A stretch of DNA of 64,000 nt from Parcubacteria group bacterium. GTDB taxonomy: Bacteria > Patescibacteriota > Minisyncoccia > Moranbacterales > UBA9337. Under the pieces are notes generated by a model, which saw only the letters and a program-made list of their open reading frames with translations, made no database searches and was not told where the DNA came from. The translations under genes and the position numbers were made by a program. This document shows positions 5,008 through 39,498 of this stretch, piece by piece (within the stretch, counting starts at the first letter, position 1; every line of letters starts with the position of its first letter). The DNA is taken from contig JBAZSW010000002.1 of NCBI GenBank assembly GCA_041662245.1, positions 89,017 to 153,016 of the forward strand. Reading direction: 5' to 3'.

Positions 5008-8000
5008 ATGTCCAAATTTCAAAAACTAATCTTAATATTTTTTTTCATATTAATCGGACTTTCTTCCGCAACTTTCGCGTCGGCCGCGGGGAATGTTTAT
5101 TATTCCGTCGGCCAATCCACCGCTAACCTCATGACGGGCGCGCCCAATGTGGCCATCACGAGTGGCGTGGCTACTTTTGACGTGGCGCAGACTGCCAACA
5201 TTGGCGTGGGGGATGTGATAGTGGCTAATGCCATTTCCTATTATATCGCCTCCAAAACTTCCACCACCGTTTGGAATGTAGTCACCAATACAGGAGCTAC
5301 GCCCACTGACATCACCTCCACTGCGGTCACTTCAGTGAAACACGTTTACACTTCTTTGAATTCGGCGGTGACAGGCGCGTCTACTCTTTTGGGCAGTTCT
5401 GACTTGACGACGGCCGACGTAGTTTTAAATATTCCTTGCTATTATGACTCCGCGGCTGACACGACCGCCGTGACTGTTAGTGGTTACACCACCGATGCGA
5501 CGCGGTATATCAAGATTTACACGCCAAGTAACACCACGACGGAAGCGAACAATTCGCAAAGGCATAGTGGGAAGTGGGATGCGACAAAATATCAATTGGC
5601 AGTATCTGGAAATTCCGCACTATATACGAGCGTCAGTTACACATATATTCAGGGATTGCAAGTGGCTCTTGATATAAGTGTATCTAGCACAAATATAGCG
5701 GGCATATTTTCTGTTAGTACATATGTGAAAATAACCGGAAATATTGTTAAGGCTAACAATACAGGCGTTCCTAGTTATTATAAACAGGGAATTAGAGTTA
5801 CTACCGTCGGAACGGGCGTTGGGGTTTGGAATAATATAATTTATGGATTTCAATATAGCGGGCTGACGTATTATGGTGGAATATCGGCGAACTCCGCTGG
5901 AGCTTATGTGTATAACAATACTGTATATAATAATGGGGGAGGTATCTACATTGCTGCAAATACTTTCGCCAAGAATAATATTTCCTACAATAACTCGTTG
6001 GATTATTATGTAGGTGCTGGTGCATTTGATGCTTCTTCTACTGGTAATCTTTCCAAAGATGCCTCCGCTCCGGCGCTCAACACATATTACAGAAATAAGA
6101 CATTGACTTTCGTCAGCACCATTTCCGGTGGTGAAGATTTTCATTTGGTTCCTGCTGATACGGATGCGATTAACAAAGGAGCGGATTTGAGTGGCGATGC
6201 CAATTTGCCATTCACCACCGACATCGATGGCGCGCCGAGGAATGCTTCGATTAATGCTTGGGACATCGGGGCGGACGAAGCGGCGACGCAGATTTTCCGC
6301 AGTGTCGCTCCGAGTGCCACGGCGGTTTTGGAAAGTGACACTTCGCACGCTCGCACTGTGACACTTACCAGCGGCGTGGCGACTTTTAGCAATGCTCTCT
6401 CTGACACCATCGGGGTGGGGGACGCGGTGCTGATCGACACGGGCGGCACGGATCAAGCGATTGATGCTTCAGACACATTATTATTCATCAGTGGTCGTAA
6501 TTCTTCTACCAGCTACAACCTACAAACTAATAATGGTTCTGTACCCAGTAACATTGCCAGCAACGATACTTATCAAATCTATCGCGCTTACACTTCCATC
6601 GCTAACGCCGAGGAGGGAACCAAAAACACCTCCATCCCTATCGCTTTCAATGGCGGCAATCGCAATATTTTCACCAACAATGAACAATGGAACATCGCGT
6701 GTTATGCCAATGGGACCACGGCGGATGCCAGGGCGGTAGTCAGCGGTTGGACAACGGGTACGAATAATTATATCAAAATCTATACTCCCGTGAATTTGAC
6801 CGAAGTGGGCACGAGCCAAAGGCATGCTGGCAAATGGGATGACAGTAAGTATAAGATGGAGATCAATGCTAATTTTTATATTTATGCAGCCAATACTAGA
6901 TTTGACGGAATCCAGATCAAGGGCAGTGGCAGTGAAGATGTCATCAGTTATGATAATTTCAATTCTTCCGGCGGAGAACAGGTCGTGTCCAATTCGATTA
7001 TCCGCGGAGGCACGCGCGGTATCGCTGGAGTGCGCGCTAATACAAAAATTAGGATTTACAACAATATCATCTATACGATGGCCAATGCTGGATTGTATCC
7101 TTGTCCTACCGATTCCTTTTGCTATATGTATAACAATACATTATACAATACAGGAACATATGGCATTTATACCAACGGTGGTACAGCCATTGCCAAGAAT
7201 AACATCGTCTATGGTGCTGGTAATTTTAACACCTATGCTGGGACTTTTTCGGTCGGGACGGATAACAACGCGACTGACAGCACGGATGCGATTGGACAAG
7301 GCTCCAATAACAGAATCAGCCAAACTTTCTCTTTCGTTTCCACCGTGAGTGGCTCGGAAGACTTCCATCTCCAGTCGACTGATGCCGGCGCGCGAAATTA
7401 TGGCGCGGATATGAGCGCGGATGTTAATTTTGCTTTTGCCACCGATATCGACGGCGCGTCGAGAAATGCGAGCATTAACGCGTGGGATATCGGGGCGGAT
7501 GAAACCGCTACCCAGATTTTCAGAAGTGTCGGACCCAGTGCTACGGCGGTGCTCGAAAGTGATACATCGCATGCTAGAACAGTGACTCTTACTAGTGGAG
7601 TGGCGACTTTTAGTAATGCTCTCTCTGACACCATCGGGGTGGGGGACGCTGTCATCATCGACACGGGTGGCACGGATCAAACCATTGATGCTAGTGATAC
7701 GATATTATTTATCAGCAGCAGAAATAGTGCTACCAGCTACCAGCTACAAGCTAACAACGGCTCCGTACCCAGTAACATTACTATCAATGACACTTACCAA
7801 ATTTACCGCGCCTACACCAGTTTGAGTTTGGCGGAAGCGGGGACGAAGAATGCGAGCATTCCGATGACTTTTAATGGTGGTGATCGCGATTTGGTGGCGA
7901 ATAATGAGCAGTGGAATCTAGCGTGTTATGCCAATGGAACGACGGCGGATACGACTGCAGTGACAGTGAGTGGCTGGATCACTGCACAACAGGATTTTAT

Positions 8001-11000
8001 TAAAATTTACACGCCAGTAACCACGACCGAAGTGGGAACGAGTCAAAGGCATAATGGTAAGTGGGATGATGGGAAGTATAGATTGGAATATACTGGCAGT
8101 TTCGCCACAACATTAGATTCTGCAGTGATGGATATTTGGGTGGACGGATTGCAAATAAAAAGAGTGACTACTCAAAATTATGGAAATATTATAGCCTTAC
8201 GCGTTATTTCCAGAAGTAAAGTTAGCAATAACATAGTTAATTTTGTTGATACTTATACCAATTCAACTAAAGCAATATCCAATGTGTCTTCAGATGGAAG
8301 TCCGAGTTATTTTTGGAATAATATAATGTATGGAACTAGTTTGGACTATGGATACTATCAGGCAGATGCTTATGGCTATGTGTATAATAATACTGTTTCT
8401 GGTGCTGGAGATGTTGGTTATTTTTCTGGTTTTCAATTGAGAATGTTTGTTAAAAATAATATTGCTCAAAATTGTGTGGATGGATTTTTGGCTTCAAGCG
8501 GAAATTTTGGTGTTGGTTCGGATTATAATATTTCTGATTTGAGTGCCGACGCTCCCGGAGCTAATTCCAAAAATTCTACCACCGTCGCTTTTGCTGACTC
8601 CGCCAACAAAGACTTTCACCTCGCCCCCACTGACACCGCCGCCAAAAATTCCGGCGTGGATTTGAGTACGGATGCTAATTTGCCAATCACCACCGATATT
8701 GATGGCCAAACTAGAAGTGCCACCCCCAGCTGGGATATCGGCGCGGATGAAGCGGCCAATGCTGTGTACTATAGTGTCGGTCAATCCACCGCGGACTTGA
8801 AAACTGGCACGCCTAATGTCGCCATCACCAGTGGCGTGGCCACTTTTGACGCGGCGCAGACTGGGAACATCGGGGTGGGGGACGTCATGATTGCTAATGC
8901 CATCTCATATTACATATCAAGCAAAACCTCCACCACCGTTTGGAATGTGGTGACCAATACGGGCGCCACTCCCGCCAACATCACTTCCACGGCCGTCACT
9001 TCCATCAAACATGTTTACACTTCTTTGAACTCCTCCGCCTCCGGTGCGGGCACGCTCTTGGGCACGACTGATTTATATACCAATAATTATCAAATTAATC
9101 TGCCTTGTTATTACGACTCCGCGGCGGACACGGCGGCCGTTACCGTGAGTGGTTACACGACTGCGGTGCCCAATTACATTAAGATTTACACGCCGAATAA
9201 TACTTCTACGGAAGCCAATAATTCGCAACGGCATGGGGAAAAATATGACATTACAAAATATCGACTTGAAGTAACTGACGCGAACGGATTGGCATTGACA
9301 GGAGTTGATACTAAAATAATTGGCCTCCAGATTAAATTGACTGCAACAACTAGCTGGAGATCGGCAATTGCCCATGGTATTAATTATAGAGGCAACATTG
9401 AAATAGCAAATAATATCATAAAAGGTGTTTTAACAGGTAATATAACAGATTTTGGTCTATGGATAAAAAGAAACAATGTAAATACGAAAATATATAACAA
9501 TGTTATTTATGGTTTCAAGAGTGATTTGACTGCCTCTTGCGCTGGAATGTGGTTTGGTTTTGAAGGAGGAGTCGGGTCGTCAATTAAGAATGTTTTTAAC
9601 AATACATTTTATGGAAATTATTATGGTTTGAACTCCATGGATGGCGGTGTTACTGTAGTGGCGAAGAATAATATTTCTTATAATAATCCATATAAAGACT
9701 ATAATGGTACTTTTGATGCTTCCTCCACCAACAACATTTCCAAAGATACCACGGCGCCGCCCTATAACACCTATTACACCAACAAAACCTTGTCTTTTGT
9801 CAGTACCATTTCCGGTGCAGAAGATTTTCATTTGGCCTTCACGGATACGGACGCCCTCAACAAGGGAGTAGATCTGTCGGCTGACACTAGTTTCGCTTTC
9901 ACCACCGACATCGACGGCCAAACCAGAAATCAAAACAGTCTCGGGTGGGACATTGGGGTCGACGAAGCAGCCACCCAGATTTTCTATTCCGTCGGACAAA
10001 ACACATCTGATCACAAAACTGGTTTGCCAACCGTGACAGTCAGCGGTACGACCGCCACTTTCAGTGTGGCACAAACAGCGACCAATATGGGCGTGGGGGA
10101 TCTGGTGACTTATACAGGTGGAATATGTTACCTGAGCGCCAAAACTTCCACCACTGTTTGGAGTTGTATATCTGCGACGGGTGGAACGCCGACCGCCGCC
10201 ACCAACGCCACTGTCACCAGCATCGCGCATGCGTTTGCGTCATTGAGTGCGGCAATGTCTGGGTCAGGTCCCGGAGCCAGCAATTCATCTCATCTTAATA
10301 CTACTAACTTAGTAACAAATAATTATCAACTCAACATTCCTTGCTATTATGACAGTGGGGCAGATACTACAAGAGGCAATGTATATGGCTTTACTACTGG
10401 TGCCAATAATTATATTCGCCTTTATACTCCGAATAATGTGGCAGCAGAAGTGAATCTTAGCCAACGGCATCAAGGCAAATGGGATGATGCAAAGTATCGT
10501 TTTGAATATACTGCCACAGGCAGTTCTGATTATGCCCTATATATACAAGAACCATATATCAAGATTGACGGATTACAAATCAAAAGTTCAGATGGTGGAT
10601 ATGGCTATAGCGCTGGCATTGGTATAAATAGCGTATATAGCATTACTAGCAGCAATTTAGAAATATCAAACAACATTATTAAGGCCGGAACGCTTACAAA
10701 CGCCACCGTTGCCGCTGCGGGCATTGGCAACTATTCTGGTGGAAAAAGTTTGATTTATAATAATGTCATTTACGGTTTTAATGTTGATGGATCAAGTACG
10801 AAGGGAAGGGGGTTGCATATTCGAGGAAGTGCCTATGTTTATAATAATACTTTTTATGATTGTTATCATGGTATTTATAATTATGATGGAACTGCTTATG
10901 CTAAAAATAACATCGTACAAAGTGCTACCGATGGCTATGCAGGATCATTCACTTCTTCCGATTACAACATTTCCAACCTTGCGGCTGATGCTCCGTCAGC

Positions 11001-12540
11001 TTCATATCGAAGTGGCCTTGCGACAACTGCTGCTTTTGCGGATGTGGGCAACAAAGATTTTCATCTCGCCAATTCCGACACCGCCGCGCAAGGCAAGGGG
11101 GTGAATCTGACAACTGACACCAATTTACCTTTCAACGTTGACATTGATAGCGAGCAGCGCGGAACCTATTGGTCGATCGGGGCGGACGAGCCAATCGGAG
11201 TCAACGTGCAAACACCACCAGCAACTAGTCCTAACCTCGGCATCAATTCTGGCCTCGTCGGTTATTGGTCGATGGATGGTCAGACAATCTCCGGCACGAC
11301 CGTGAAAGATTTATCCGGCAACAATAATAACGGCACCAACAATGGTGCGGCGCAAGCGGTCGGCAAAAGAGGACAAGCGTTATCGTTCAATGGGACGAGT
11401 GATTATTTGGATGTGGGGAGTATTGCTATGGCAGACAATACTTCTTGGGCGGTTTCTACATGGTTTTATCCCACAGGTTCGAGCTATCAAGCCCTAGTCG
11501 GGAATACATATACTAGTAGTAGCTATGGAAGAATTCAGATAAGATACAACGATTTGTACATGTTTTATAATGATGCCAATGGTGGCATAAATTGGAATGT
11601 TGGAAGCGGAATGCCTTCAAATACTTGGCATCATGCAATTATAATTTGCAATGGAACAGATTCGAATAATCTAGAATTATATTTGGATGGTGTTTCTCTG
11701 GGCTATAAGACTTTGGCAGATTCTGGTTGGACTGCTAAATATTTGGGAAAATCAGGAAGTAGTAGCTATTGGAGCGGAGCTATGGACGAAGTTCGCGTCT
11801 ATAACCGCGCAATTTCAGCGGATGAAGTCGGACAGCTTTATCGGACGGGAGAAGAAAAATTGCAAACTTCGCAGACAGACAAAATGACCAATGGCTTGGT
11901 GGGGATGTGGAGTTTTGATGGGGCGGACATTTCCGGTACGACCGCCTATGACCGCAGCGGACAAGGCAACAATGGAACGATCAATGGTGTCACGCCGGCG
12001 ATTGGAAAGCGTGGCCAGGCTTTGAATTTCAATGGGACAAGTGATTATGTCAATATTAGTAGCACCCCGACTATCCTCGAAGGGAAAACGGCCTTTACGA
12101 TAAACTTTTGGGCCAAGAGCAGTGTGGCCTTGCCGGTATCGAAAGGAATATTTTCTAACATGGTAAATACTAATCAGCTTGTATCCGATTGTTCTGTTCT
12201 GGCAAATGATAATTATTTATTTAGAGTTTATGACGACACGGGAGTATCAAGTAGTTTTCAATTAGATGGGAGTGATATTTTTCCGGATACCAATTGGCAT
12301 TACATTTCTAATGTTTTTAGCAATGGATTAGCTTCTGTCTATGTCGATGGAGTGTATAAAGGCATATCTTCAACGACTATCGGAGCCAGTCGGAGTGGCG
12401 GTGTTACAAAAGCTTTTCGTTTAGGGAATGGCCAAGGTTATTGGAACGGAGCGCTTGATGAATTTCGCATCTATGACCGCGCGCTTTCTGCAGATGAAAT
12501 TAAAAATTTGTATGATATGGGACAGGCGGCGGTGAAATAG
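5008..12540 (+). CDS. Giant secreted modular protein (2510 aa): signal peptide, 5 beta-sandwich/beta-helix modules, 2 C-terminal LamG-like lectin domains
   Basis: Signal peptide MSKFQKLILIFFFILIGLSSATFASAAG. Modules end in EDFHL...DLS.D.N..F.TDIDG..R...WDIGADE and contain N-ladder beta-helix turns (NNIIYG, YNNTxYN, AKNNI). C-terminal LamG hallmarks are LVGYWSMDG...FNGTSDY...DEVRVYNRAIS..EV.QLY and a second copy. Confidence 0.85.
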   Translation: MSKFQKLILIFFFILIGLSSATFASAAGNVYYSVGQSTANLMTGAPNVAITSGVATFDVAQTANIGVGDVIVANAISYYIASKTSTTVWNVVTNTGATPTDITSTAVTSVKHVYTSLNSAVTGASTLLGSSDLTTADVVLNIPCYYDSAADTTAVTVSGYTTDATRYIKIYTPSNTTTEANNSQRHSGKWDATKYQLAVSGNSALYTSVSYTYIQGLQVALDISVSSTNIAGIFSVSTYVKITGNIVKANNTGVPSYYKQGIRVTTVGTGVGVWNNIIYGFQYSGLTYYGGISANSAGAYVYNNTVYNNGGGIYIAANTFAKNNISYNNSLDYYVGAGAFDASSTGNLSKDASAPALNTYYRNKTLTFVSTISGGEDFHLVPADTDAINKGADLSGDANLPFTTDIDGAPRNASINAWDIGADEAATQIFRSVAPSATAVLESDTSHARTVTLTSGVATFSNALSDTIGVGDAVLIDTGGTDQAIDASDTLLFISGRNSSTSYNLQTNNGSVPSNIASNDTYQIYRAYTSIANAEEGTKNTSIPIAFNGGNRNIFTNNEQWNIACYANGTTADARAVVSGWTTGTNNYIKIYTPVNLTEVGTSQRHAGKWDDSKYKMEINANFYIYAANTRFDGIQIKGSGSEDVISYDNFNSSGGEQVVSNSIIRGGTRGIAGVRANTKIRIYNNIIYTMANAGLYPCPTDSFCYMYNNTLYNTGTYGIYTNGGTAIAKNNIVYGAGNFNTYAGTFSVGTDNNATDSTDAIGQGSNNRISQTFSFVSTVSGSEDFHLQSTDAGARNYGADMSADVNFAFATDIDGASRNASINAWDIGADETATQIFRSVGPSATAVLESDTSHARTVTLTSGVATFSNALSDTIGVGDAVIIDTGGTDQTIDASDTILFISSRNSATSYQLQANNGSVPSNITINDTYQIYRAYTSLSLAEAGTKNASIPMTFNGGDRDLVANNEQWNLACYANGTTADTTAVTVSGWITAQQDFIKIYTPVTTTEVGTSQRHNGKWDDGKYRLEYTGSFATTLDSAVMDIWVDGLQIKRVTTQNYGNIIALRVISRSKVSNNIVNFVDTYTNSTKAISNVSSDGSPSYFWNNIMYGTSLDYGYYQADAYGYVYNNTVSGAGDVGYFSGFQLRMFVKNNIAQNCVDGFLASSGNFGVGSDYNISDLSADAPGANSKNSTTVAFADSANKDFHLAPTDTAAKNSGVDLSTDANLPITTDIDGQTRSATPSWDIGADEAANAVYYSVGQSTADLKTGTPNVAITSGVATFDAAQTGNIGVGDVMIANAISYYISSKTSTTVWNVVTNTGATPANITSTAVTSIKHVYTSLNSSASGAGTLLGTTDLYTNNYQINLPCYYDSAADTAAVTVSGYTTAVPNYIKIYTPNNTSTEANNSQRHGEKYDITKYRLEVTDANGLALTGVDTKIIGLQIKLTATTSWRSAIAHGINYRGNIEIANNIIKGVLTGNITDFGLWIKRNNVNTKIYNNVIYGFKSDLTASCAGMWFGFEGGVGSSIKNVFNNTFYGNYYGLNSMDGGVTVVAKNNISYNNPYKDYNGTFDASSTNNISKDTTAPPYNTYYTNKTLSFVSTISGAEDFHLAFTDTDALNKGVDLSADTSFAFTTDIDGQTRNQNSLGWDIGVDEAATQIFYSVGQNTSDHKTGLPTVTVSGTTATFSVAQTATNMGVGDLVTYTGGICYLSAKTSTTVWSCISATGGTPTAATNATVTSIAHAFASLSAAMSGSGPGASNSSHLNTTNLVTNNYQLNIPCYYDSGADTTRGNVYGFTTGANNYIRLYTPNNVAAEVNLSQRHQGKWDDAKYRFEYTATGSSDYALYIQEPYIKIDGLQIKSSDGGYGYSAGIGINSVYSITSSNLEISNNIIKAGTLTNATVAAAGIGNYSGGKSLIYNNVIYGFNVDGSSTKGRGLHIRGSAYVYNNTFYDCYHGIYNYDGTAYAKNNIVQSATDGYAGSFTSSDYNISNLAADAPSASYRSGLATTAAFADVGNKDFHLANSDTAAQGKGVNLTTDTNLPFNVDIDSEQRGTYWSIGADEPIGVNVQTPPATSPNLGINSGLVGYWSMDGQTISGTTVKDLSGNNNNGTNNGAAQAVGKRGQALSFNGTSDYLDVGSIAMADNTSWAVSTWFYPTGSSYQALVGNTYTSSSYGRIQIRYNDLYMFYNDANGGINWNVGSGMPSNTWHHAIIICNGTDSNNLELYLDGVSLGYKTLADSGWTAKYLGKSGSSSYWSGAMDEVRVYNRAISADEVGQLYRTGEEKLQTSQTDKMTNGLVGMWSFDGADISGTTAYDRSGQGNNGTINGVTPAIGKRGQALNFNGTSDYVNISSTPTILEGKTAFTINFWAKSSVALPVSKGIFSNMVNTNQLVSDCSVLANDNYLFRVYDDTGVSSSFQLDGSDIFPDTNWHYISNVFSNGLASVYVDGVYKGISSTTIGASRSGGVTKAFRLGNGQGYWNGALDEFRIYDRALSADEIKNLYDMGQAAVK

Positions 12541-12675
12541 AATGGACATTCGATGTCGAAAATCTTTTTATGGTATAATGGGGGAAGAGAGGAGGATTTG
12601 AAATAAATTTCGAATTTTGAATTTCGAATTTTGAATCAATTTCGAATGAATAAATGATAAGAAATGTTTCCTCTT

Positions 12676-12750: not shown

Positions 12751-12822
12751 AGATGAATCAGAGATATAAGATGAATTTCGAATTTTGAATTTTGAATTTC
12801 GAATCAATTTCTAATTATCTAA

Positions 12823-13052
12823 TGTTTCAAAATTAAAACATTAAGATTTGAATCAAAATTTTAAATTTCAAATTTAAAGTTTAAAATGAATAAAAAAATA
12901 TTAAATGATTAAAACAGATACGAAATATAATAAGAAAAAGATTGAAATTAAAATTTATTCATTTAAAATTGATTTCAAATTTCAAATTTAGCCTTTAAAA
13001 TTAGAGCTATATTTACAAAAATTAAAAATTCTAAAAATTACAAAATTAAAGT
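12823..13052. repeat. Repeat family A, copy 3
   Basis: Sequence identity to the other A copies. Confidence 0.8.
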
Positions 13053-13097
13053 TATGAAGATGTTGCTATTGACTAATGTCATAATTTAGTATAAAAT

Positions 13098-14621: not shown

Positions 14622-14714
14622 ATGTCCAAATTTCAAAAACTATTATTAATCCTAGTATTTACGATAATCGGACTTTCTTCCGCAACTTTCGCGTCGGCAG
14701 CATCTAATGTATAA
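14622..14714 (+). pseudogene. Orphan 30-codon stub of a giant-gene 5' end (promoter-proximal repeat plus signal peptide MSKFQKLLLILVFTIIGLSSATFASAASNV, then a stop)
   Basis: The upstream A repeat and the first 84 nt are near-identical to the starts of the genes at 16365 and 27097. The reading frame ends at TAA 14712-14714. Confidence 0.7.
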
Positions 14715-16073: not shown

Positions 16074-16148
16074 GTCATTTCGACCGAATAAATATTTGTA
16101 CTCAAATATTTAGAAGTGGAGACCTGCCTGCCGGCAGACAGGAATCTC
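16074..16148. repeat. Repeat family B (long form)
   Basis: Identical to 12676-12750. Confidence 0.8.
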
Positions 16149-16165
16149 AGATGAATGATAAAATC

Positions 16166-16364
16166 TTAAGATAAATTTTGAATTTTAAATTTAAAGTTTA
16201 AAATGAATATAAAAATATTAAATGATTAAAACAGATACGAAATATAATAAAAAAAAGATTGAAATTAAAATTTATTCATTTAAAATTGATTTCAAATTTC
16301 AAATTTAGCCTTTAAAATTAGAGCTATATTTACAAAAATTAAAAATTACAAAATTAAATTCATA
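16166..16364. repeat. Repeat family A, copy 5
   Basis: Sequence identity to the other A copies. Confidence 0.8.
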
Positions 16365-26835: not shown

Positions 26836-27096
26836 CAATGAAGCAGTGGGATTCTGATAATAATTTTTAATTTTTATATTTTTAATTTTTAAATAATGCT
26901 CAAATTTCTAATTTTTAAAAATTAAGAATTCAGATTTATTTATAAAATTACAAAAATTACAAAATTAAAAATTCTATAAACTGTGATTTAGAAGAGAGAT
27001 GCACAAAATTTGTAGAGTCTGCATATTGCAAAATTAAAAAATTCAGATTTATTTACAAAAATTAAAAATTCTAAAAATTACAAAATTAAATTCATA

Positions 27097-33000: not shown

Positions 33001-36000
33001 AATATCGTTCAAAACTGTGTCGATGGGTATGACGGCACATTCAATTCCGCTTCCGACTATAATATTTCCGATCTCGCTTCAGACAACACTGGTGGGGCGC
33101 ATGACAAACAAGCCACCGTGGCTTTCGCTGACACTGCCAACAAAGATTTTCACCTCGCCCCCACTGACACGGCCGCCAAAAATTCCGGCGCGGATTTATC
33201 AGCGGACGCATATCTGCCATTTGCCACCGACATCGACGGCCAGACCAGAAGTGCTACCCCCAGCTGGGACATCGGCGCCGATGAAGCGGCTAATGCTGTC
33301 TACTATTCTGTCGGGCAATCCACGGCGGATTTGAAAACCGGTACGCCCAATGTCGCCATCACCTCGGGCGTGGCTACTTTTGACGTTGCGCAGACTGGGA
33401 ACATCGGGGTTGGGGATGTTATGATCGCTAACGCTATCTCATATTACATATCAAGCAAAACTTCCACCACTGTTTGGAATGTGGTTACCAATACGGGTGC
33501 TACGCCAACTGACATCACGTCCACGGCCGTGACTTCCATCAAGCATGTTTACACTTCACTTAACTCTGCCTCTTCCGGTGCCGGCACACTCCTTGGCACA
33601 ACTGATCTATACACTAACAATTACCAAATCAACATCCCTTGCTATTATGACGGTGCAGCCGACACGACATCTGTGACAGTCTCTGGCTACACCACGGCTG
33701 TGCCCAATTACATCAAGATTTATACGCCATATAATACGACGACCGAGAGTAACAATTCGCAAAGGCATAGCGGGAAGTGGGACGATGCAAAATATCGTTT
33801 AGTATCGGCCAGTCCTACAACCGTCCAACTCAATAGCTCCTATATCATGCTTGAAGGTATTCAACTAAAAAATACCAATACAACATCGGGTGCTGATACC
33901 GCCATAATATATACCAGTTTAAATAACGCTAATTCTTTGTTGACAATCAATAAGAATATTGTTGTGGCTCAAGTGTCCGGAGTTGGCACGATGTATGCTT
34001 TTAAGGATATCTATCAGACGACCAAGAACGCTATATTCAGTAATAATTCTTTTTATAACATAACCGGCGGGACGGCGGAAGATAGAGCTATTATTATGGA
34101 TGGAGGAAACTTTTATATATATAACAACACTATTTATAATGCCGAGGCTGGACTTAAAATAACTTATTCTTCCACGGTTATCGCTAAAAATAATATAGTG
34201 CAAGGCGCTACGGATGGATATTATGGTACTTTTGATTCCTCTTCTGATTACAACATTTCCAATCTATCCAGCGACACGACGGGTGGCGCGCATGACAAAC
34301 AAGCCACGGTGGTTTTTATTTCTACTACGGCCGGCGTTGAAGATTTTCATCTAGCTTTGACTGACACCGCTGCACGAAATTCCGGAGTGGATTTGAGCGC
34401 CGACACCAGTTTCGCTTTCACCACCGACATTGACTCTCAAACCAGAAATCAAAACGCTCTCGGTTGGGACATCGGCGCCGACGAGGCCGCCACACAAATA
34501 TTTTACAGTGTCGGGCAAAACACCACTGACCACAAAACCGGTACGCCGTTGGTCACGGTAGCGGGTACGATGGCGACTTTTGACACCGCCCAAACCGCCA
34601 CCAATATGGGCGTGGGGGATCTGGTCACGTACACGGGTGGCACTTGTTACATTTCGGCTAAAACTTCCTCTACCATTTGGAGTTGTATATCTGCGACGGG
34701 TGGCACGCCAACGGCCGTCATCAACGCGAGCGTCACTTCCATCGCGCATGCCTTTGCATCTCTCGAAGGCGCCGTGGATGCCGGCACTGCTTCGGGGGCG
34801 TTTGATGCGTCGCATCTCAACACCAAAGATATAATGGCGGGCAACTTTCAACTCAACATTCCTTGCTATTATGACAGCGGAGCGGACACTACGGCTGTCA
34901 CCGTGCAATCTTGGACGACGGGAGCACAGAATTATCTTAAGATTTATACGCCCAACAACACGACCAGTGAAGTCAATCAGACCCAAAGACATGCTGGGAA
35001 ATGGGATGATACTAAATATGATCTTAAAATATCAACTAATGCCCACAATATGCAAATTTCAATTAGTTACATTCATATTGATGGATTACAAATATACCAA
35101 TATGCTGATAATTCAGCCAAGGTCAGTTTATATGTCTACTCTCCTAATACAGGCATAGAAATATCAAATAATATTATTCGGGGTAGGGGTAGTTATACAA
35201 CAGGGACACATTTGGGGATAAATATCGCCACTTCTAATAAAATATGGAACAATATTATTTATAATTTTAATGTAACTGGCTCAGTCGGAATCAATTCAAC
35301 GGGCAGTTATACGAATCAATACATATACAATAATACTATCTATAATTGCGCTGTAGGTATTGCTCGATCAAATGCTACGGTAATTCTCAAAAACAACATT
35401 GCCTACAATAATGGAACTGACTATTCTGGCACTTTCGATGCTTCTTCCACCAATAATCTTTCCAAAGATGCTACGGCTCCGCCTCTCAACACTTATTACA
35501 TCAATAAAACATTGGCTTTCACCAATGTTACTTCCGGCGCCGAAGATTTTCATTTGGCCACTACTGATACGGATGCCATCAATAAAGGTGCGGATCTCTC
35601 TGCCGACACCAGTCTATCTTTCACTACCGACATCGACGGTGCGGGTCGAATCGCGGCGGTGAACGCGTGGGACATCGGAGCCGATGAAACCGCCACCCAG
35701 ATTTATCGCTCGGTCGCTCCGAGCGCCACAGCAGTTTTGGAAAGTGATACTTCCCACGCTAGAACTGTGACAATCACCAGTGGAGTGGCCACTTTTAGCA
35801 ATGCTCTCTCTGACACTATTGGAGTCGGGGACGCTGTCCTCATCGATACAGGTGGTACGGATCAAACCATTGATGCTAGTGATACTATATTATTCATCAG
35901 CAGCAGAAATAGTGCTACCAGCTACAACCTACAAACTCATACAGGAGCTACTCCCAGCGACATTACTATCAATGATACATACAGTATTTATCGAGCTTAT

Positions 36001-39000
36001 ACCAGTGTAAGTTTAGCGGAAGCGGGCACCAAAAATACGAGTATCCCGATAACTTTTAACGGAGGCAATCGTGATTTAGTTACCAACAATGAACAGTGGA
36101 ACTTGGCTTGTTATGCTAATGGAGTGACAGCGGATACGACATCAGTAATAATTACTGGTTGGACCACTGCGCAACAGGACTTTATTAAAATTTATACCCC
36201 TGTATCGACAACTGAAGTAGGGACGAGTCAAAGGCACGGGGGGAAGTGGGACAGCGGATTTTTTAGAATGGAGAACATTTCATACAGTCTGTATATATCA
36301 GTTGACAATATTGTCATTGATGGAATTCAATTCTACAATAGTAATAATGTTGGAAACTCGTCAGGCATTTATCTTACTGGTGCGGGAGGGATAGAAAACA
36401 TAACGTTTAGTGGAAATATTTTTAGGGGTTTGGGATCATATAGCGACGGCAATTTACATAGTGGTATTTCTGCTACGGGACTAACTCCGACAGCAGGTTC
36501 AGTAGTTAAAATTTATAATAACATTGTTTATGATTTTTCCGGTTCATCGCTAAGTGGAATAGGCATAAACGCTGTAAAAGGAACTCGAACATATTATATT
36601 TATAACAATACTGTGTATAATATTGTGGGTTATGGAATCAATAATTATAGTGCTGCGGCAGTGGTAGCTAAGAATAATATTGTGCAAAATTGTACCGATG
36701 GATATGTTGGAACTTTTACTAGCTCCGACTACAACATCTCCGACATCGCTGCCGACAACACTGGTGGGGCGCATGACAAACAAGCCACCGTGGCTTTCGC
36801 CGACACTGCCAACAAAGATTTTCACCTCGCTCCCACCGACACCGCCGCCAAAAATTCCGGCGTGGATTTGAGCGCGGATGCTAATTTGCCAATCACCACC
36901 GACATCGACGGCCAGACTAGAATCGCCACTCCCGGTTTTGACATCGGCGCGGATGAAGCGGCTAATGCCGTCTATTATTCCGTCGGCCAATCCACCGCGG
37001 ACTTGAAGACCGGCACACCGAATGTTTCCATTGCCAGCGGTACGGCCACTTTTGATGTGGGGCAAACTGCTAATATCGGGGTTGGGGATGTGATGATCGC
37101 TAACGCCATTTCATATTACATATCAAGCAAAACTTCCACCACCGTTTGGAATGTGGTTACGGTGACAGGCACCACTCCCACCAACATCACTTCCACGGCT
37201 GTCACTTCGATCAAGCACGTCTATTCTTCTTTGAATTCCGCCTCCTCCGGTGCGGGCACACTTCTTGGTACGAGTGATTTGTATACTAACAATTACCAAA
37301 TCAATATCCCATGTTATTATGACAGTGCCGCCGACACGACGGCGGTGACTGTGCAAAATTACACTACCGCTGTGCCCAATTATATTAAAATTTATACGCC
37401 GAATAATACGGTGACGGAGAGTAATAATTCGCAGAGGCATAGCGGGAAATGGGACACGGGGAAGTATAGCCTCTCTAACAGTGCAGTAGCAGATGCTTTA
37501 AGAATTAATAATAACAATGTTGTTATTGCTGGTTTACAGATTAATCAGCAGTATAATGCTGATTATTATGATGCAATCGCAGTGGGAGCTGATAATCGCA
37601 ATGCGATGATCTTGCAAAATATTCTAAAAGATTCTGGTGCGACCAATTCGGGGAACGCCGTTTATGTAGGCAATAGTACCAATACGTCAATTCCGAGTAT
37701 GATTTATATTGTGAATAATGTCGCTTATGGCTGGAAATCAGATGCTATAAATGTTGGTGGCGTTGGAGATAATGGGGCATTTGTGTACAATAATACATTA
37801 TATGGAAACGGCACCTGTGGCATAAATCAAAATAGTTATTATGATGTTGTCGCTAAAAATAATGTTGTAAATTCTAGTGGTACTTATGGTTATTGTACTT
37901 CTCATCTTTCAACGCCTTTAAATTACGCTACCTCTTCCACTAACAATATTTCCTCTGATGCCACCGCTCTGGGATCAAATTCCAAAATCAATGCTACCGT
38001 TAAATTTATTTCTACCACCAGTGGTAGTGAAGATTTACATTTATCTCCCGAAGATAAAATGGCTAGAGATTTCGGAGCAGATTTGAGTGTGGATGCCAAT
38101 TTTGCCTTTAGCACTGACGTTGACGGTTCTGTTCGGACAGTTTCTTGGGATGCAGGAGCCGATGAAACGGCGACACAAATCTTCTACAGTGTCGGACAGA
38201 ACACCACTGATCACAGCATCGGCAGTGGTGGTGCCACTTGTTCTACTACGGGGGCTTGCACCATCACTATTGCCGGTGGCATGGCTACTTTCAATTATGC
38301 CCAAACCGCCACCAATCTCGGAGTGGGTGATAAGGTGACTTACAATACCACGAGTGTGGCTTATATTACCCAAAAAATTTCTCAAACCCAATGGAAATTA
38401 ATGACAGCCACAGGTGGAGTGCCAGCCGACGTCGGCACGGCCCAGACTTTGAATTCCATTACGCATGCCTTTGCCTCATTGGAAGGTGCGGTGGATGCTG
38501 ATAATGCCAATGGTGCCTTTGATTCAACCCATCTCAACACCAAAGATTTGGTGATTGGAAATTACCAACTCAATGTTCCTTGTTATTATGACACAGGCGC
38601 GGATACGATGAATGTAATATTGAGATCTTGGAAGACAAGCACGCAGAATTATATCAAGATGTACACGCCCAATAATACTACTAGCGAAGTCAATCAGTCT
38701 CAGAGACACAACGGTAAATGGGACGCGACGAAATATTCCTTATCCAGTACGGGCCTTGGCTCAAATCTTTATACCGCGGATAATAGTACGGGCAATGGCA
38801 ATGTCATAATTGAGGGCATTCAATTCTACAGATATAGCGCTAGCAATTTTACATCTGTATTATCTCTGCCCTCGACTAAGAATTCATTCAAAAGAATATC
38901 TTCTAATATATTCAAAGGGGAAGTAAATTATTTATCCAGCACTTATGTCATTTCCGGAGGGGTAGCCGGAGCAGATGTTTATATCTATAATAATATTTTT

Positions 39001-39498
39001 CAAGATTTTAAGCCCGCCAGCGGATATGTCTGGGGATTTAATCCGAGTGCTGGCAATTGGTATGTTTACAACAATACTTTTTATAATTGTGACGTGGCGA
39101 TTAGACGCGGGGCATCGAATAATATGTATGTCAAAAACAACATCACCCAAAATTGTACTGACGGATATTATGGAACTTTTGACGCATCTTCCGATTATAA
39201 TATCTCTGACCTCGCTGCTGACACTGCGGGTGGCGTGCACGACAAACAAGCCACTGTGGCTTTTATTGACGCTACCAATAAAGATTTCTGTTTGAAGACA
39301 AGCGATACGGCGGCCAGATATGCAGGAATAAATCTTTCTACTGATAGTTATTTACCTTTTACAAATGACATTCGAGGCAAAGCTCGTCCCAAATCTCCCG
39401 ATGCTTGGAGTATCGGCGCTTGCGAAAATCTCGATTCTACAAAAGTAAAAATGGAAGGCACGCAGATAAAATTGGAAGGAGATGTGAAATTTGAGTAA
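27097..39498 (+). CDS. Giant secreted modular protein (4133 aa): signal peptide, 10 modules, no LamG tail
   Basis: Same signal peptide. Ten modules each end in the DFHL...TDIDG..R...WDIGADE motif. The last ends ...DAWSIGACENLDSTKVKMEGTQIKLEGDVKFE. Confidence 0.85.
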   Translation: MSKFQKLLLILVFTIIGLSSASLASAATQIYRSVASGVTATLATDSSHANTVTVTSGTATFSAALPDNIGVGDAVLIDTGGTDQTIDASDTLLFIHARASSTSYTLKTHTGATPSDISINDTYSIYRAYTSLSNAEAGTKNTNIPITFNGGDRNLVTNDEVWNFACYAAGTTADTAMTTIDSWTTDSTRYMRIYTPVSTTEVGTSQRHSGKWDESKYYISIGNNSAGIYYNIKYLVIDGIQIKVTSSDSSGSVGIQAYNSSIVAGGEITIKNNIVRGQLSGTDPGSAGIATSGYSPNSGVIKIFNNIVYDFARVTGTPQAIFFGAGDHYIYNNTIINCYGGLYKNGGSSAAVAKNNIVKGATDAYYGTFTTGTDYNATDGTDDIGTGSNNKISQTFSFIDETNDDFHLSSTDTAARNSGIDLATDTYSPFATDIDGAGRSATVNAWDIGADETATQIFRSVGPSATAVLESDTSHARTVTLTSGVATFSVALADDIGVGDAVLIDTGGTSNAIDASDTILFISARNSSTSYNLQTHTGAAPSDITINDTYSIYRAYTSLSLAEAGTKNTSIPITFNGGNRDLVTNNEEWNLACYANGVTADTTSVTVAGWTTAQQDFIKIYTPVTTTEVGTSQRHGGKWDMGKYNLTVDSGSWRAITNEVSYMTINGLQISKDCQNNNDSNAVRDQGVGGLVNISNNIIKETSTNSLTASQGVRKHWGSGTVLIWNNIIYGWHGTGNYVSGIVNASASAAYLYGYNNTIYDCNIGIRRDTGTIIAKNNITQNCTDGYSGTFDSSSDYNISDLASDNTGGAHDKQATVAFADTANKDFHLAPTDTQAKNSGADLSADANLPFTTDIDGQTRSATPGWDIGADEAANAVYYSVGQSTADLKTGSPNVAITAGVATFDVAQTGNIGVGDVVVANAISYYISSKTSTTVWNVVTVTGATPTNITSTAVTSIKHVYTSLNSAVSGASTLLGTTDLYTNNYQINIPCYYDSAADTTAVTVSGYTTAVPNYIKIYTPYNTTTESNNSQRHSGKWDATKYRLVTTLGNISVSYVNNVKIDGLQLESQATVARRVIIMIGSNMAISNNILRYSGAAPVEAIFCNSTQTNIDVWNNIVYGFANGGDGIYITNNNNGSARVYNNIVYGGTYGITTGNTDIIAKNNISYNNTTYDFSSGTFHSTSTNNLSKDATAPPLNTYYTSKTLAFTSTTAGAEDFHLVAADTDAINKGADLSADTNLAFSTDIDSQTRNLRSEGWDIGADEAATQIFYSVGQNTSDHKTGSPLVTVSGTTATFDTAQTATNMGVGDLVTYTGGTCYISAKTSTTVWSCLSVTGGAPTAATNASVTSIAHAFASLEGAVDADMATGAFDATHLNTKDLVAGNYQLNVPCYYDSGADTTAVVVRSWTTGAQDYIRIYTPVSTTTEVNQTQRHSGKWDSGKYNMLISSGASGKAIYVANQYIRIDGLQIKTVGYGGIWSNVIYGAKGQIISNNIIWGSGTFTAAGQGIGWFGNVASVSAYNNIIYGFTYAGSYGIRLDQYTQDKTPVVYNNTVYGCDTGILQDADAYYSNNIAYNNGVDFSGTSRAGSTNNLSKDGTATGTNAKINQTVAFTSTASGSEDFHLASTDTAAKNSGADLSADANLPFATDIDGASRNASINAWDIGADETATQIFYSVGQNTSDHKTGSPTVTVSGTTATFDTAQTATNMGVGDLVTYTGGTCYISAKTSTSVWSCVSATGGTPTVASGANVTSIAHAFSALSTALDADSISTSAGNSSHLNTNNLVTGNYQLNVPCYYDSGPDVGAYVRSWTTGAQNHIKIYTPVSTTSEANQTQRHSGKWDNTKYSINATGLGQNINSWNIDLVIEGLQIYKYAADGYTSIITVNPAAFSRISANIFKGDNNFGSAYGISGGSASLNVNIYDNVFQDFRSPSSYFWTINPAAGNWYVYNNTFYNCHIALRGISGMVAKNNIVQNCVDGYDGTFNSASDYNISDLASDNTGGAHDKQATVAFADTANKDFHLAPTDTAAKNSGADLSADAYLPFATDIDGQTRSATPSWDIGADEAANAVYYSVGQSTADLKTGTPNVAITSGVATFDVAQTGNIGVGDVMIANAISYYISSKTSTTVWNVVTNTGATPTDITSTAVTSIKHVYTSLNSASSGAGTLLGTTDLYTNNYQINIPCYYDGAADTTSVTVSGYTTAVPNYIKIYTPYNTTTESNNSQRHSGKWDDAKYRLVSASPTTVQLNSSYIMLEGIQLKNTNTTSGADTAIIYTSLNNANSLLTINKNIVVAQVSGVGTMYAFKDIYQTTKNAIFSNNSFYNITGGTAEDRAIIMDGGNFYIYNNTIYNAEAGLKITYSSTVIAKNNIVQGATDGYYGTFDSSSDYNISNLSSDTTGGAHDKQATVVFISTTAGVEDFHLALTDTAARNSGVDLSADTSFAFTTDIDSQTRNQNALGWDIGADEAATQIFYSVGQNTTDHKTGTPLVTVAGTMATFDTAQTATNMGVGDLVTYTGGTCYISAKTSSTIWSCISATGGTPTAVINASVTSIAHAFASLEGAVDAGTASGAFDASHLNTKDIMAGNFQLNIPCYYDSGADTTAVTVQSWTTGAQNYLKIYTPNNTTSEVNQTQRHAGKWDDTKYDLKISTNAHNMQISISYIHIDGLQIYQYADNSAKVSLYVYSPNTGIEISNNIIRGRGSYTTGTHLGINIATSNKIWNNIIYNFNVTGSVGINSTGSYTNQYIYNNTIYNCAVGIARSNATVILKNNIAYNNGTDYSGTFDASSTNNLSKDATAPPLNTYYINKTLAFTNVTSGAEDFHLATTDTDAINKGADLSADTSLSFTTDIDGAGRIAAVNAWDIGADETATQIYRSVAPSATAVLESDTSHARTVTITSGVATFSNALSDTIGVGDAVLIDTGGTDQTIDASDTILFISSRNSATSYNLQTHTGATPSDITINDTYSIYRAYTSVSLAEAGTKNTSIPITFNGGNRDLVTNNEQWNLACYANGVTADTTSVIITGWTTAQQDFIKIYTPVSTTEVGTSQRHGGKWDSGFFRMENISYSLYISVDNIVIDGIQFYNSNNVGNSSGIYLTGAGGIENITFSGNIFRGLGSYSDGNLHSGISATGLTPTAGSVVKIYNNIVYDFSGSSLSGIGINAVKGTRTYYIYNNTVYNIVGYGINNYSAAAVVAKNNIVQNCTDGYVGTFTSSDYNISDIAADNTGGAHDKQATVAFADTANKDFHLAPTDTAAKNSGVDLSADANLPITTDIDGQTRIATPGFDIGADEAANAVYYSVGQSTADLKTGTPNVSIASGTATFDVGQTANIGVGDVMIANAISYYISSKTSTTVWNVVTVTGTTPTNITSTAVTSIKHVYSSLNSASSGAGTLLGTSDLYTNNYQINIPCYYDSAADTTAVTVQNYTTAVPNYIKIYTPNNTVTESNNSQRHSGKWDTGKYSLSNSAVADALRINNNNVVIAGLQINQQYNADYYDAIAVGADNRNAMILQNILKDSGATNSGNAVYVGNSTNTSIPSMIYIVNNVAYGWKSDAINVGGVGDNGAFVYNNTLYGNGTCGINQNSYYDVVAKNNVVNSSGTYGYCTSHLSTPLNYATSSTNNISSDATALGSNSKINATVKFISTTSGSEDLHLSPEDKMARDFGADLSVDANFAFSTDVDGSVRTVSWDAGADETATQIFYSVGQNTTDHSIGSGGATCSTTGACTITIAGGMATFNYAQTATNLGVGDKVTYNTTSVAYITQKISQTQWKLMTATGGVPADVGTAQTLNSITHAFASLEGAVDADNANGAFDSTHLNTKDLVIGNYQLNVPCYYDTGADTMNVILRSWKTSTQNYIKMYTPNNTTSEVNQSQRHNGKWDATKYSLSSTGLGSNLYTADNSTGNGNVIIEGIQFYRYSASNFTSVLSLPSTKNSFKRISSNIFKGEVNYLSSTYVISGGVAGADVYIYNNIFQDFKPASGYVWGFNPSAGNWYVYNNTFYNCDVAIRRGASNNMYVKNNITQNCTDGYYGTFDASSDYNISDLAADTAGGVHDKQATVAFIDATNKDFCLKTSDTAARYAGINLSTDSYLPFTNDIRGKARPKSPDAWSIGACENLDSTKVKMEGTQIKLEGDVKFE

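Follow-up and report, generated by a model that had tools for sequence, protein, structure and literature searches.

Three giant exported proteins of a Parcubacteria group bacterium built from predicted beta-helix modules with exchangeable cores

Three giant genes in a 64,000-nucleotide window (the whole stretch of DNA analysed) from a Parcubacteria group bacterium encode proteins built from 21 modules, each predicted to fold into a small beta-barrel that leads into a parallel, right-handed beta-helix with some ten rungs. In these modules a conserved frame alternates with variable cores, and the cores are exchangeable cassettes that have been swapped between frame flavours across species. We lean towards the view that the three genes encode Sec-exported, extended, multivalent fibres of tailspike-like glycan-recognition units; the kind of protein is known, and the family is undescribed. 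All three are open on the + strand, at the lengths given by a first-pass annotation of the DNA, and together cover about 29.5 kb of the contig:

5008..12540 (+) gene A, 2510 aa: signal peptide, modules S-R-R-S-N, linker, two LamG domains; NCBI MFA6183737.1
16365..25925 (+) gene B, 3186 aa: signal peptide, modules S-R-S-N-R-X, three LamG domains; NCBI MFA6183740.1
27097..39498 (+) gene C, 4133 aa: signal peptide, modules R-R-S-N-N-S-N-R-S-N, 23-aa tail; NCBI MFA6183742.1

Their reading frames, 7.5-12.4 kb each, are intact and free of internal stops, and the genes are under purifying selection. Scans for intrinsic terminators and sigma-70 promoters near the giant genes scored no higher in this AT-rich DNA than in shuffled sequence.

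Splitting the proteins at the end motif [WF][DS][IA]G[AV][DC]E recovers the 21 modules counted in the first-pass annotation (five in A, six in B and ten in C; 380-452 aa each). The start motifs that it described for subtypes R, S and N are present, as is the common module end EDFHL...TDIDG..R...WDIGADE. Its three subtypes account for 20 of the 21 modules (S, n=7; R, n=7; N, n=6), but module B6 represents a fourth flavour, X, which recurs in homologs too:

5089..6279 (+) A1, flavour S
6280..7503 (+) A2, flavour R
7504..8751 (+) A3, flavour R
8752..9966 (+) A4, flavour S
9967..11190 (+) A5, flavour N
16446..17618 (+) B1, flavour S
17619..18872 (+) B2, flavour R
18873..20099 (+) B3, flavour S
20100..21287 (+) B4, flavour N; taken for structure modelling
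21288..22574 (+) B5, flavour R
22575..23714 (+) B6, flavour X, divergent; begins GTVEFAPTVMQTGGDYSSL
27175..28452 (+) C1, flavour R, divergent
28453..29712 (+) C2, flavour R
29713..30885 (+) C3, flavour S
30886..32094 (+) C4, flavour N
32095..33285 (+) C5, flavour N
33286..34485 (+) C6, flavour S
34486..35688 (+) C7, flavour N
35689..36957 (+) C8, flavour R
36958..38166 (+) C9, flavour S
38167..39426 (+) C10, flavour N, divergent

The module order R-S-N is found four times in the window; a universal R-S-N grammar is not supported, the architectures of homologs being combinatorial.

Predicted fold and domain assignments

The AF2 model of module B4 (pLDDT 89.4, pTM 0.83) predicts a beta-barrel at residues 1-88, a cap helix at 93-97 and a right-handed beta-helix from about 120 to 396, and the modelled helix is of the right-handed, three-stranded kind, its rungs stacked and carrying an Asn ladder. 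The beta-helix is predicted as it had been proposed from the sequence; the accompanying beta-sandwich is instead modelled as a six-stranded beta-barrel, an N-terminal element of about 88 aa. Pfam Beta_helix (PF13229) scores 19.2, 22.5 and 30.5 bits in genes A, B and C, respectively, passing its gathering cut-off of 25.9 bits in gene C only.

The proposed choice-of-anchor Q-type module termini are borne out by the NCBIfam model NF041518, which exceeds its curated cut-off of 25 bits in all three proteins (gene A, 30.1; gene B, 49.2; gene C, 34.0) and covers the last ~58 aa of modules (DFHL...DIDG..R...DIGADE). Choice-of-anchor domains are generally defined as sitting just upstream of a recognised C-terminal sorting signal. 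The giant proteins share with NF041518 proteins this module end, but the element recurs here 21 times as a module junction instead of once before an anchor: 20 of the 21 copies are internal, not placed just before a recognised sorting signal, and the last copy in gene C directly precedes the 23-aa tail, while A and B run on into LamG domains. A literature search turned up no mention of choice-of-anchor Q.

The assertion that no described family matches also stands, Pfam having no model for barrel or frame and NCBI giving the proteins only the generic names 'LamG domain-containing protein' and 'hypothetical protein'. Foldseek returned nothing at E <= 1e-3, the similarity to beta-helices being generic, and a sequence profile search of the PDB gave nothing significant (best match chondroitinase B, E about 0.9).

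LamG tails had been placed on two genes, with two and four copies, and none on the third; the choice of genes and the two copies of gene A are upheld, but gene B has three:

11191..12537 (+) linker and two LamG (Laminin_G_3) domains, gene A; Pfam
23715..25922 (+) three LamG domains, gene B; Pfam

Laminin_G_3 (PF13385; Pfam cut-off 27.6) scores 129 bits in gene A and 179 bits in gene B (E-values 2e-37 and 8e-53) and is not found in gene C.

Conserved frame and variable core

The conservation boundary does not coincide with the module boundary. Each module junction is spanned by a conserved frame of ~290 aa, which takes in the end of one helix (its last rungs and cap), the barrel and the opening rungs of the helix that follows; this frame alternates with a hypervariable core of ~140 aa, which is formed by the central rungs and differs from module to module. 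The frame flavours (three or four) co-vary. Modules of one flavour have a protein identity of 0.80 over the N-part and 0.30 over the core. With a dN/dS of about 0.1, against 0.4-0.5 for the core, the frame is under strong purifying selection.

The ~80% protein identity of the N-part within a flavour is accompanied by only ~74% DNA identity, and no two modules share an exact DNA match longer than 77 nt. The repeats did not arise recently, which makes an assembly artefact unlikely. On the same 77-nt maximum and on saturated synonymous sites (pS 0.62-0.74), a recent origin of modules by duplication or gene conversion is rejected.

Scaffold motifs (NN ladders) are retained and the intervening sequence varies; the residues common to modules are of scaffold type (Asn ladders, hydrophobics). 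Cores are 10-17% aromatic and poor in charge, some having as few as 3 acidic residues. From the periodicity of the sequence, the variable residues may line one groove of the helix.

Cores are old, distinct types, some of which are kept in other species, where their counterparts have 60-81% identity; the core of C6 is 81% identical to that of a module in P0002, from another organism. Exchange between flavours is exemplified by a mosaic of C7 (flavour N), P0001 and B4, in which the core of C7 is 57-83% identical to an S-flavour module of P0001. Hypervariation driven by a diversity-generating retroelement (DGR) is rejected: no RVT_1 was found among the scanned ORFs of the window, and the core differences are old and are not adenine-specific variants of one template. 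The DGRs of related loci adjoin Lcl_C proteins, not beta-helix genes.

Signal peptides, leaders and C-terminal tails

Each giant gene begins with a leader and a signal peptide, and a further copy of this start stands alone between genes A and B:

4940..5007 (+) AT-rich leader upstream of gene A, TTTATTTACAAAA...TAAAAATTACAAAATTAAAGTTATA
5008..5088 (+) signal peptide of gene A, MSKFQKLILIFFFILIGLSSATFASAA; sole hydrophobic segment, AXA motif
14622..14714 (+) orphan 5' fragment of a giant gene: repeat, leader, 30 codons (MSKFQKLLLILVFTIIGLSSATFASAASNV), then stop
16148..16364 (+) full 214-nt intergenic repeat and leader, directly upstream of gene B
16365..16445 (+) signal peptide of gene B; DNA 93% identical to gene C and 95% to the orphan copy
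27029..27096 (+) leader upstream of gene C
27097..27174 (+) signal peptide of gene C, from sequence features

The signal peptides, near-identical in all three proteins, combine a basic n-region, a hydrophobic stretch of ~15 residues and an A-S-A/A cleavage motif, features that support a Sec-type assignment, and they are the only hydrophobic segments of the giant proteins. The repeat, leader and signal peptide had been called identical in the three genes. A common leader does exist, limited to the last ~45-70 nt, but the copies are not identical (over the first 84 coding bases, B, C and the orphan agree at 92-95% and match A at 80-83%), and among the three genes the full 214-nt repeat precedes gene B only. 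The homogenised part is the leader and signal-peptide cassette only (92-95%).

The 23-aa tail of gene C has a counterpart on an unrelated protein, and a small membrane protein is encoded upstream of the gene:

1851..1898 (+) same class of tail on an unrelated FG-GAP repeat protein, VKIKESIRIKGGVRIK
26168..26731 (+) 187-aa single-pass membrane protein, upstream neighbour of giant beta-helix genes, conserved in related organisms
39427..39495 (+) 23-aa C-terminal tail of gene C, NLDSTKVKMEGTQIKLEGDVKFE; portable C-terminal motif

The tail of gene C is short, basic and amphipathic, and shares the motif G-x-Φ-K-Φ-(R/K)-G-x-Φ-K-Φ-(R/K) with the FG-GAP protein, which is also secreted and the gene of which is cut off by the start of the window and ends at 1901; FG-GAP homologs of Ignavibacteria end in a T9SS C-terminal domain instead. 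NCBIfam gave no match to the C-terminal tails at E <= 10, LPXTG (LP.TG) is absent from the three proteins, and the giant proteins lack the features of known sorting signals (LPXTG, PEP-CTERM, T9SS CTD, GlyGly-CTERM and others). The motif has the look of a sorting or anchoring signal not described before. A gene for a membrane protein of ~180 aa also adjoins giant genes in related loci.

We tentatively raise the possibility of two linked readings, namely that the tail motif is a sorting or anchoring signal specific to Patescibacteria and that the giant proteins are a library of receptor-binding cassettes shuffled by recombination. The tail would then be a basic amphipathic beta-hairpin, taking the place of the T9SS, PEP-CTERM or LPXTG signal of other phyla, and may dock onto the ~180-aa membrane protein encoded beside the giant genes; the library, i.e., exchangeable beta-helix cores on a conserved connector, would be shared with phages and would set the episymbiotic host range.

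As a side observation, the gene at 60425-60775 is the only 23S_rRNA_IVP gene, and no remnant of one lies between the 187-aa gene and gene C.

Possible functions and relation to known proteins

Host recognition and attachment are largely obscure in Patescibacteria, very few of which are cultured. Very large surface proteins with ConA, FN3 or integrin-like domains have been proposed as host-attachment factors in these bacteria (PMC13059738), and in the DPANN archaeon Nanobdella an action on the host wall has been proposed for surface proteins with a pectin-lyase fold (10.1101/2023.10.27.564410). Fold and context suggest an adhesin or glycan-binding role for the giant proteins and an episymbiotic lifestyle for the bacterium. 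As glycan-recognition fibres, the proteins would stay at the cell surface after cleavage of the signal peptide, retained via the tail, the LamG domains or the neighbouring conserved membrane protein, and would project as rods of ~40-80 nm, at ~8 nm per module. Each helix would use its variable groove to bind a surface polysaccharide of its own, on a host or prey cell or in the matrix, and some modules may also cut it; a single cell would present 21 specificities at high avidity. The conserved frame would keep the rod rigid and supply homology for the swapping of cores over evolutionary time. The proteins could also simply be released, since they carry no recognised cell-wall or membrane anchor.

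'Adhesin' is not the sole reading, and the modules may not be pure binders, because the nearest structural neighbours of the module are mostly enzymes. The modules may form an array of polysaccharide depolymerases (lyases or hydrolases) of differing specificities, which would break down the capsule or cell wall of a host, or polymers of the environment, to gain entry or to feed, with binding in a secondary role. The resemblance of the barrel and helix unit to GH110 enzymes and tailspike depolymerases speaks for this, but we consider it unlikely: no catalytic signature was found in the three proteins, including the DPH(D/E) motif of mannuronan C5-epimerases (AlgE/AlgG), the residues conserved across modules are those of a scaffold, and the low acidic content of some cores likewise argues against catalysis. 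The weak alignment with chondroitinase B puts the Lys250 and Arg271 of that enzyme at positions that vary between modules; K297 (AKNN) is nearly invariant. The three proteins have no CAZy-type Pfam matches and no significant sequence match to a CAZy-type structure, and membership by sequence of a known enzyme family (PL6/PL9, GH136/GH110/GH28) is rejected, the PDB profile search having given no significant similarity.

Decidedly unlikely, in our view, is a mainly protective or variable coat, the diversity of which would reflect phage pressure (receptor masking, decoys, antigenic variation) and not host recognition. Four PDC-S01 and one PDC-S13 candidate defence genes are interleaved with the giant genes in the island, and AbiEii, DGRs and PD-(D/E)XK genes lie next to giant genes in related loci, as would suit a coat; but such co-location is typical of flexible islands generally and is no proof of function. 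The atypical composition of the giant genes (GC3 0.42-0.44 vs 0.23-0.32 in housekeeping genes), the status of all three proteins as singletons in 90% identity clusters and the presence of the same module next to tail-fibre genes of a putative phage point the same way. Against this, strong purifying selection on the frame and the conservation of several cores at 60-81% across organisms argue for maintained, specific functions and not for free antigenic drift, and the LamG domains, of lectin fold, point to ligand binding.

That the region is a prophage, a phage-derived tail-fibre cluster, an assembly artefact or a pseudogene array is highly improbable: although the sequence is highly repetitive and relatives are encoded on two IMG/VR contigs (the only ones in viral collections, one, UViG_3300027896_000115, a putative phage, encoding a two-module relative without signal peptide beside collagen-like tail-fibre genes), the window has no phage structural, packaging or integrase genes, the modules match neither PHROGs nor GenBank phages (tblastn), the proteins have signal peptides and their genes sit just upstream of the infA-rpsM-rpsK-rpsD-rpoA cluster, and pseudogenes and misassembly are rejected on the intact frames, a dN/dS well below 1 and the shortness of the exact repeats.

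The fibres that we favour find their closest likeness in phage tailspikes and capsule depolymerases (multi-depolymerase Klebsiella phage K64-1, CBA120), which share the body of beta-barrel and beta-helix predicted here and, as would hold for the fibres, have specificity residing in the variable surface of the helix and many specificities per particle or cell; the relative on the putative viral contig lies next to tail-fibre genes. Phage tailspikes are trimers. The giant proteins differ from them in fusing up to 10 units, in being encoded on a bacterial chromosome and in having a signal peptide at the N-terminus and no particle-binding domain; no PHROG or other sequence match links the two, and no catalytic residues were identified. 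Mannuronan C5-epimerases of the AlgE type (Azotobacter vinelandii) are likewise secreted, with repeated beta-helix A-modules of ~385 aa, and form a paralogous family differing in module number, but they have at most two A-modules, RTX-type R-modules, type I secretion and a catalytic YG(F/I)DPH(D/E) motif that is absent from the giant proteins.

Among beta-helix surface proteins, comparators come from Methanobrevibacter and Methanosphaera, as adhesin-like proteins (PMC11532034), along with PfbA of S. pneumoniae and the pectin-lyase-like proteins of Nanobdella; they are alike in belonging to host-associated organisms with small genomes, but have one helix each, Ig-like domains and known anchors, e.g., LPXTG, in contrast with the serial helices, conserved connector, LamG or novel C-terminal tail and lack of a known anchor seen here. 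Giant proteins implicated in adhesion in other bacteria (West-Roberts et al., 10.1101/2023.11.21.568195) and those of Absconditicoccaceae (PMC13059738) are also very large, secreted, found in small-celled or predatory bacteria and proposed to act in cell contact; they consist of antiparallel beta-helices, dockerins and FN3, not of this module family.

Large surface proteins of beta-helix and LamG domains are expected in such bacteria, and no unprecedented mechanism is demonstrated here. The connector, the exchangeable core and the alternative C-terminal endings offer units for assays of glycan binding or activity and for genome-based prediction of host range. It may also be that the C-terminal motif marks the exported surface proteome of these organisms; this would help annotation and might point to a sorting or anchoring pathway as yet unknown. 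The family may be one of the main surface toolkits of Patescibacteria: it has 16,326 cluster representatives, is centred on Moranbacteria and Parcubacteria and is unannotated, with relatives of up to 17 modules.

Giant genes built of serial beta-helix modules

The three giant beta-helix genes, designated A, B and C, are intact open reading frames of the sizes proposed in the first-pass annotation, and an exact look-up retrieved each protein at NCBI:

5008-12540, + strand: gene A, 2510 aa, MFA6183737.1
16365-25925, + strand: gene B, 3186 aa, MFA6183740.1
27097-39498, + strand: gene C, 4133 aa, MFA6183742.1

The contig of all three records is 196,952 bp long and belongs to a MAG labelled "Parcubacteria group bacterium"; the proteins are named "LamG domain-containing protein" or "hypothetical protein", and at 90% identity each protein is a singleton or near-singleton. 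Splitting at the module end motif W-D-I-G-A-D-E yields the expected 21 modules (5 + 6 + 10 in A, B and C, each 380-452 aa). The start motifs quoted in that annotation define module flavours S (7), R (7) and N (6), but three subtypes do not suffice, the divergent module B6 being a fourth (X) that is found again in homologs. The order R-S-N occurs four times in the window, and comparison across homologs shows module orders to be combinatorial. Two LamG domains terminate gene A and none gene C, as described, but gene B ends in three copies rather than four, with strong matches to Pfam Laminin_G_3. Pfam Beta_helix passes its cut-off in gene C but not in A or B, and the NCBIfam choice-of-anchor Q domain, also named in that annotation, scores above cut-off in all three proteins. 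The signal peptide is likewise borne out (basic n-region, A-S-A/A site), the N-terminal segment being the sole hydrophobic one; no LPXTG motif was found in the three proteins. The original observation is real and robust.

For the fold, 43 modules were aligned, 21 of them from the window and 22 taken from homologs. AlphaFold2 predicts the structure of module B4 with confidence (pLDDT 89.4, pTM 0.83): residues 1-88 form a six-stranded beta-barrel instead of the anticipated beta-sandwich, residues 93-97 a short cap helix, and the remainder to residue 396 the anticipated beta-helix, right-handed and of about ten rungs.

Structural neighbours in the fold table (the figure for each entry carries no label)
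GH136 lacto-N-biosidase: 17.4
PL6 alginate lyase: 16.3
Pel9A: 15.5
Rhombotarget A: 15.2
Phage tailspike and capsule depolymerases: 13-15
AlgE4: 14.3
PfbA adhesin: 13.3

Foldseek returned no match at E <= 1e-3, and no solved structure was related at the sequence level, the best match being chondroitinase B (E 0.9).

Conserved connectors, exchanged cores and family distribution

Within-flavour protein identity is ~80% over the N-terminal ~200 residues, ~30% over the next ~140 (the core) and ~55% over the last ~90. A junction-centred profile resolves a single conserved stretch that reaches from about -105 to +180 around W-D-I-G-A-D-E (identity 0.6-1.0), with a sharp fall to 0.2-0.35 on both sides, and module ends vary in step with the flavour of the module that follows. 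The unit of conservation is therefore the connector, i.e., helix end, barrel and next helix start, with variable central rungs lying between successive connectors. The N-part evolves at a dN/dS of about 0.1, the C-part at 0.2 and the core at 0.4-0.5; the core keeps scaffold motifs (IDGLQ, NNI, YNNIIY, YNNT, KNN) amid variable sequence and contains 10-17% W, Y and F and few acidic residues.

Counterparts of individual cores occur in other organisms, at 81% identity for C6 (protein P0002), 71% for C7 (protein P0001) and about 60% for A2, A3 and C4. C7 (flavour N) and the first module of P0001 (flavour S) share 20-53% identity in the N-part and 57-83% in the core, whereas C7 and B4, both of flavour N, share 77-93% and 30-37%, respectively; this mosaic shows that cores recombined between connector flavours.

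A word-indexed search gave 340 matches (best 55% identity); those with names belong to Moranbacteria and Parcubacteria, and almost all are "hypothetical". An exhaustive profile search retrieved 16,326 cluster representatives at E <= 1e-3, of which 3,627 remain at E <= 1e-30; among them are proteins as long as 6257 and 7731 aa that contain 15-17 modules, so that the window giants are not the largest of the family. Species-representative genomes with relatives belong mostly to Candidatus Moraniibacteriota and other Patescibacteria, and relatives also occur in Raymondbacteria, Planctomycetes, Zixibacteria and Fermentibacteria MAGs; in several genomes a single contig holds at least two loci. The family is undescribed but falls within a known kind, beta-helix and LamG surface proteins. 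Large surface proteins of Patescibacteria have been proposed as attachment factors (PMC13059738), and pectin-lyase-fold surface proteins of a DPANN archaeon to act on the host wall (10.1101/2023.10.27.564410). A literature search found no paper naming choice-of-anchor Q. The connector/cassette organisation, a C-terminal motif and a conserved membrane-protein partner are new, and all merit follow-up.

Two IMG/VR contigs encode relatives. One, an 817-aa two-module protein without signal peptide (locus L043, 3224-7451, putative viral contig UViG_3300027896_000115), directly follows two collagen-repeat tail-fibre-like genes, which supports a receptor-recognition role of the module and its probable use as a receptor-binding protein by phages that infect these bacteria; GenBank phages and PHROGs gave no match to the module.

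Given the anatomy, predicted fold, selection pattern, mosaicism and distribution established here, we lean, by a modest margin of belief, towards surface rods: the Sec pathway would export the giant proteins, which would be retained and displayed at the cell surface as rods of serial tailspike-like units, the variable helix grooves binding, and perhaps cleaving, different polysaccharides, with LamG lectin-fold domains or a tail motif at the far end. True depolymerase arrays, as the enzymes in the fold table might suggest, seem improbable; in the weak chondroitinase B alignment, catalytic Lys250 and Arg271 lie opposite variable positions, and the epimerase motif DPH(D/E) was not found in the giant proteins. 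A protective or phage-driven variable coat is slightly less probable still. Very little credence attaches to a phage remnant or artefact: beyond the 5' ends, the genes show saturation at synonymous sites (pS 0.62-0.74) and no two modules share an exact match of more than 77 nt, so the modules are old duplicates and no assembly artefact.

C-terminal tails

Genes A and B terminate in LamG domains; gene C ends in a short tail that resembles that of an unrelated protein at the window start:

39427-39495: tail of gene C, 23 aa past the last module, KMEGTQIKLEGDVKFE
1851-1898: tail of the FG-GAP repeat protein, VKIKESIRIKGGVRIK

Many homologs stop 21-25 aa past the last module with a like tail (e.g., NINRNVNFGRNVNIK, IKGGITIEGGVKIFKQ). 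Moranbacteria FG-GAP homologs carry RGNVKFRGNVNVR, QGTVKFRGNIKIE and similar tails, and those of Ignavibacteria a T9SS C-terminal domain in place of the motif. The tails share the consensus G-(T/G/N)-(V/F/I)-K-Φ-(R/K)-G-x-(V/F)-K-Φ-(R/K)-COOH; in a looser form, G-x-Φ-K-Φ-(R/K)-G-x-Φ-K-Φ-(R/K)-COOH, the motif terminates gene C, the FG-GAP protein and numerous Patescibacteria homologs of either family (P0002-P0119 and P0203-P0298). A regular expression located it at the very C-terminal end of 30/120 and 12/82 beta-helix homologs and of 26/120 FG-GAP homologs, partial sequences being frequent in these sets, against 0.2-0.7% at internal control positions; the counts are underestimates, since both window tails are missed. 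No NCBIfam model matches the motif, and a literature search on it found nothing. We take it for a portable C-terminal signal, possibly a new one for sorting or anchoring. With alternating hydrophobic and basic residues, the tail would form an amphipathic cationic beta-hairpin, a shape that would be apt for attachment to an anionic envelope or for docking on a partner by a beta-strand.

The FG-GAP protein itself (1-1901, running past the window start) is a large secreted repeat protein at the island edge, with nine or more 60-aa repeats, whose coding DNA is a tandem repeat of 180 nt (66-77% identity).

Genomic island and membrane-protein partner

The giant genes are interspersed with the following features:

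2040-2253, 3691-3904, 12831-13044, 14396-14609, 16148-16361, 40985-41198: 214-nt AT-rich intergenic repeat, six copies
2360-3526, 13129-14262, 14824-15999, 39573-40913: AAA_14+DUF4143 genes
4037-4879: Bro-N gene
14622-14714: orphan giant-gene 5' end (full upstream repeat, leader, 30 signal-peptide codons, then stop)
26168-26731: 187-aa single-pass membrane protein, preceding gene C

The 214-nt copies (78-95% identity) lie on either side of the four AAA_14+DUF4143 genes and ahead of the Bro-N gene and gene B; the repeat contains a promoter-like TTGAAA-16-TAAAAT site, and its 3' end runs on into the giant-gene leader, an AT-rich stretch of about 45-70 nt common to A, B and C. The 5' ends had been called identical, but the complete repeat stands at gene B only and the first 84 coding bases are 80-95% identical (92-95% among B, C and the orphan copy, 80-83% against A). 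The orphan, followed by the AAA_14+DUF4143 gene at 14824-15999, has two differences from gene B in these 84 nt and is suggestive of a duplication or insertion at the gene B 5' end. In contrast to the saturated synonymous sites elsewhere in the genes, the promoter/leader/signal-peptide cassette alone has stayed uniform or was recently copied. A 20-nt GC-rich palindrome, CCTGCCTGCCGGCAGACAGG, lies at 16123-16142 in the repeat copy ahead of gene B, recurs with a small deletion at about 41010 in the copy that follows the last AAA_14+DUF4143 gene, and is precisely missing where the orphan copy would have it, at about 14390.

The AAA_14+DUF4143 genes (mutual identity only 26%) match PADLOC candidate PDC-S01 (E down to 1e-150), and the Bro-N gene PDC-S13 (E 6e-117); this interleaving of candidate defence genes places the giant genes in a defence-island-like flexible region, a short way upstream of infA-rpsM-rpsK-rpsD-rpoA. 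AAA_14+DUF4143 genes also adjoin giant genes at related loci L041, L042 and L045, and related islands carry AbiEii and PD-(D/E)XK genes and DGRs (Lcl_C-type target, bAvd, reverse transcriptase), the latter a few kb from homologous giant genes (L004 3162-5644, L041 292-3128, L045 2037-4572); no DGR was found in the window. GC3 is 0.42-0.44 in the giant genes (5008-39498), 0.36 in the FG-GAP gene and 0.23-0.32 in housekeeping genes (43478-56095), and overall GC 0.42-0.48 versus about 0.31 in the first and last of these stretches, which could reflect foreign origin or special codon usage.

The 187-aa membrane protein has no Pfam match and belongs to a family of 26 clusters only, which adjoins a giant beta-helix gene at every locus examined (L002/L003, L041, L045, L046, L047; relatives of ~180 aa at L002 2227-2790, L041 8948-9511, L045 9001-9564, L046 9001-9528 and L047 7612-8154). 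Its closest relatives in other organisms reach 74-87% identity, compared with 55% for the giants and their best homolog, and the protein is a candidate anchor or accessory factor. The usual order at related loci is membrane protein, 23S_rRNA_IVP gene, giant gene; at L047 the IVP gene is located upstream, and the giant itself also includes an IVP-like stretch, and in the window no IVP gene separates the 187-aa gene from gene C. The window's 23S_rRNA_IVP gene (a bAvd-like four-helix bundle, 85% identical to the L045 copy) lies 21 kb away at 60425-60775, near pyruvate:ferredoxin oxidoreductase genes and tRNA-Thr.
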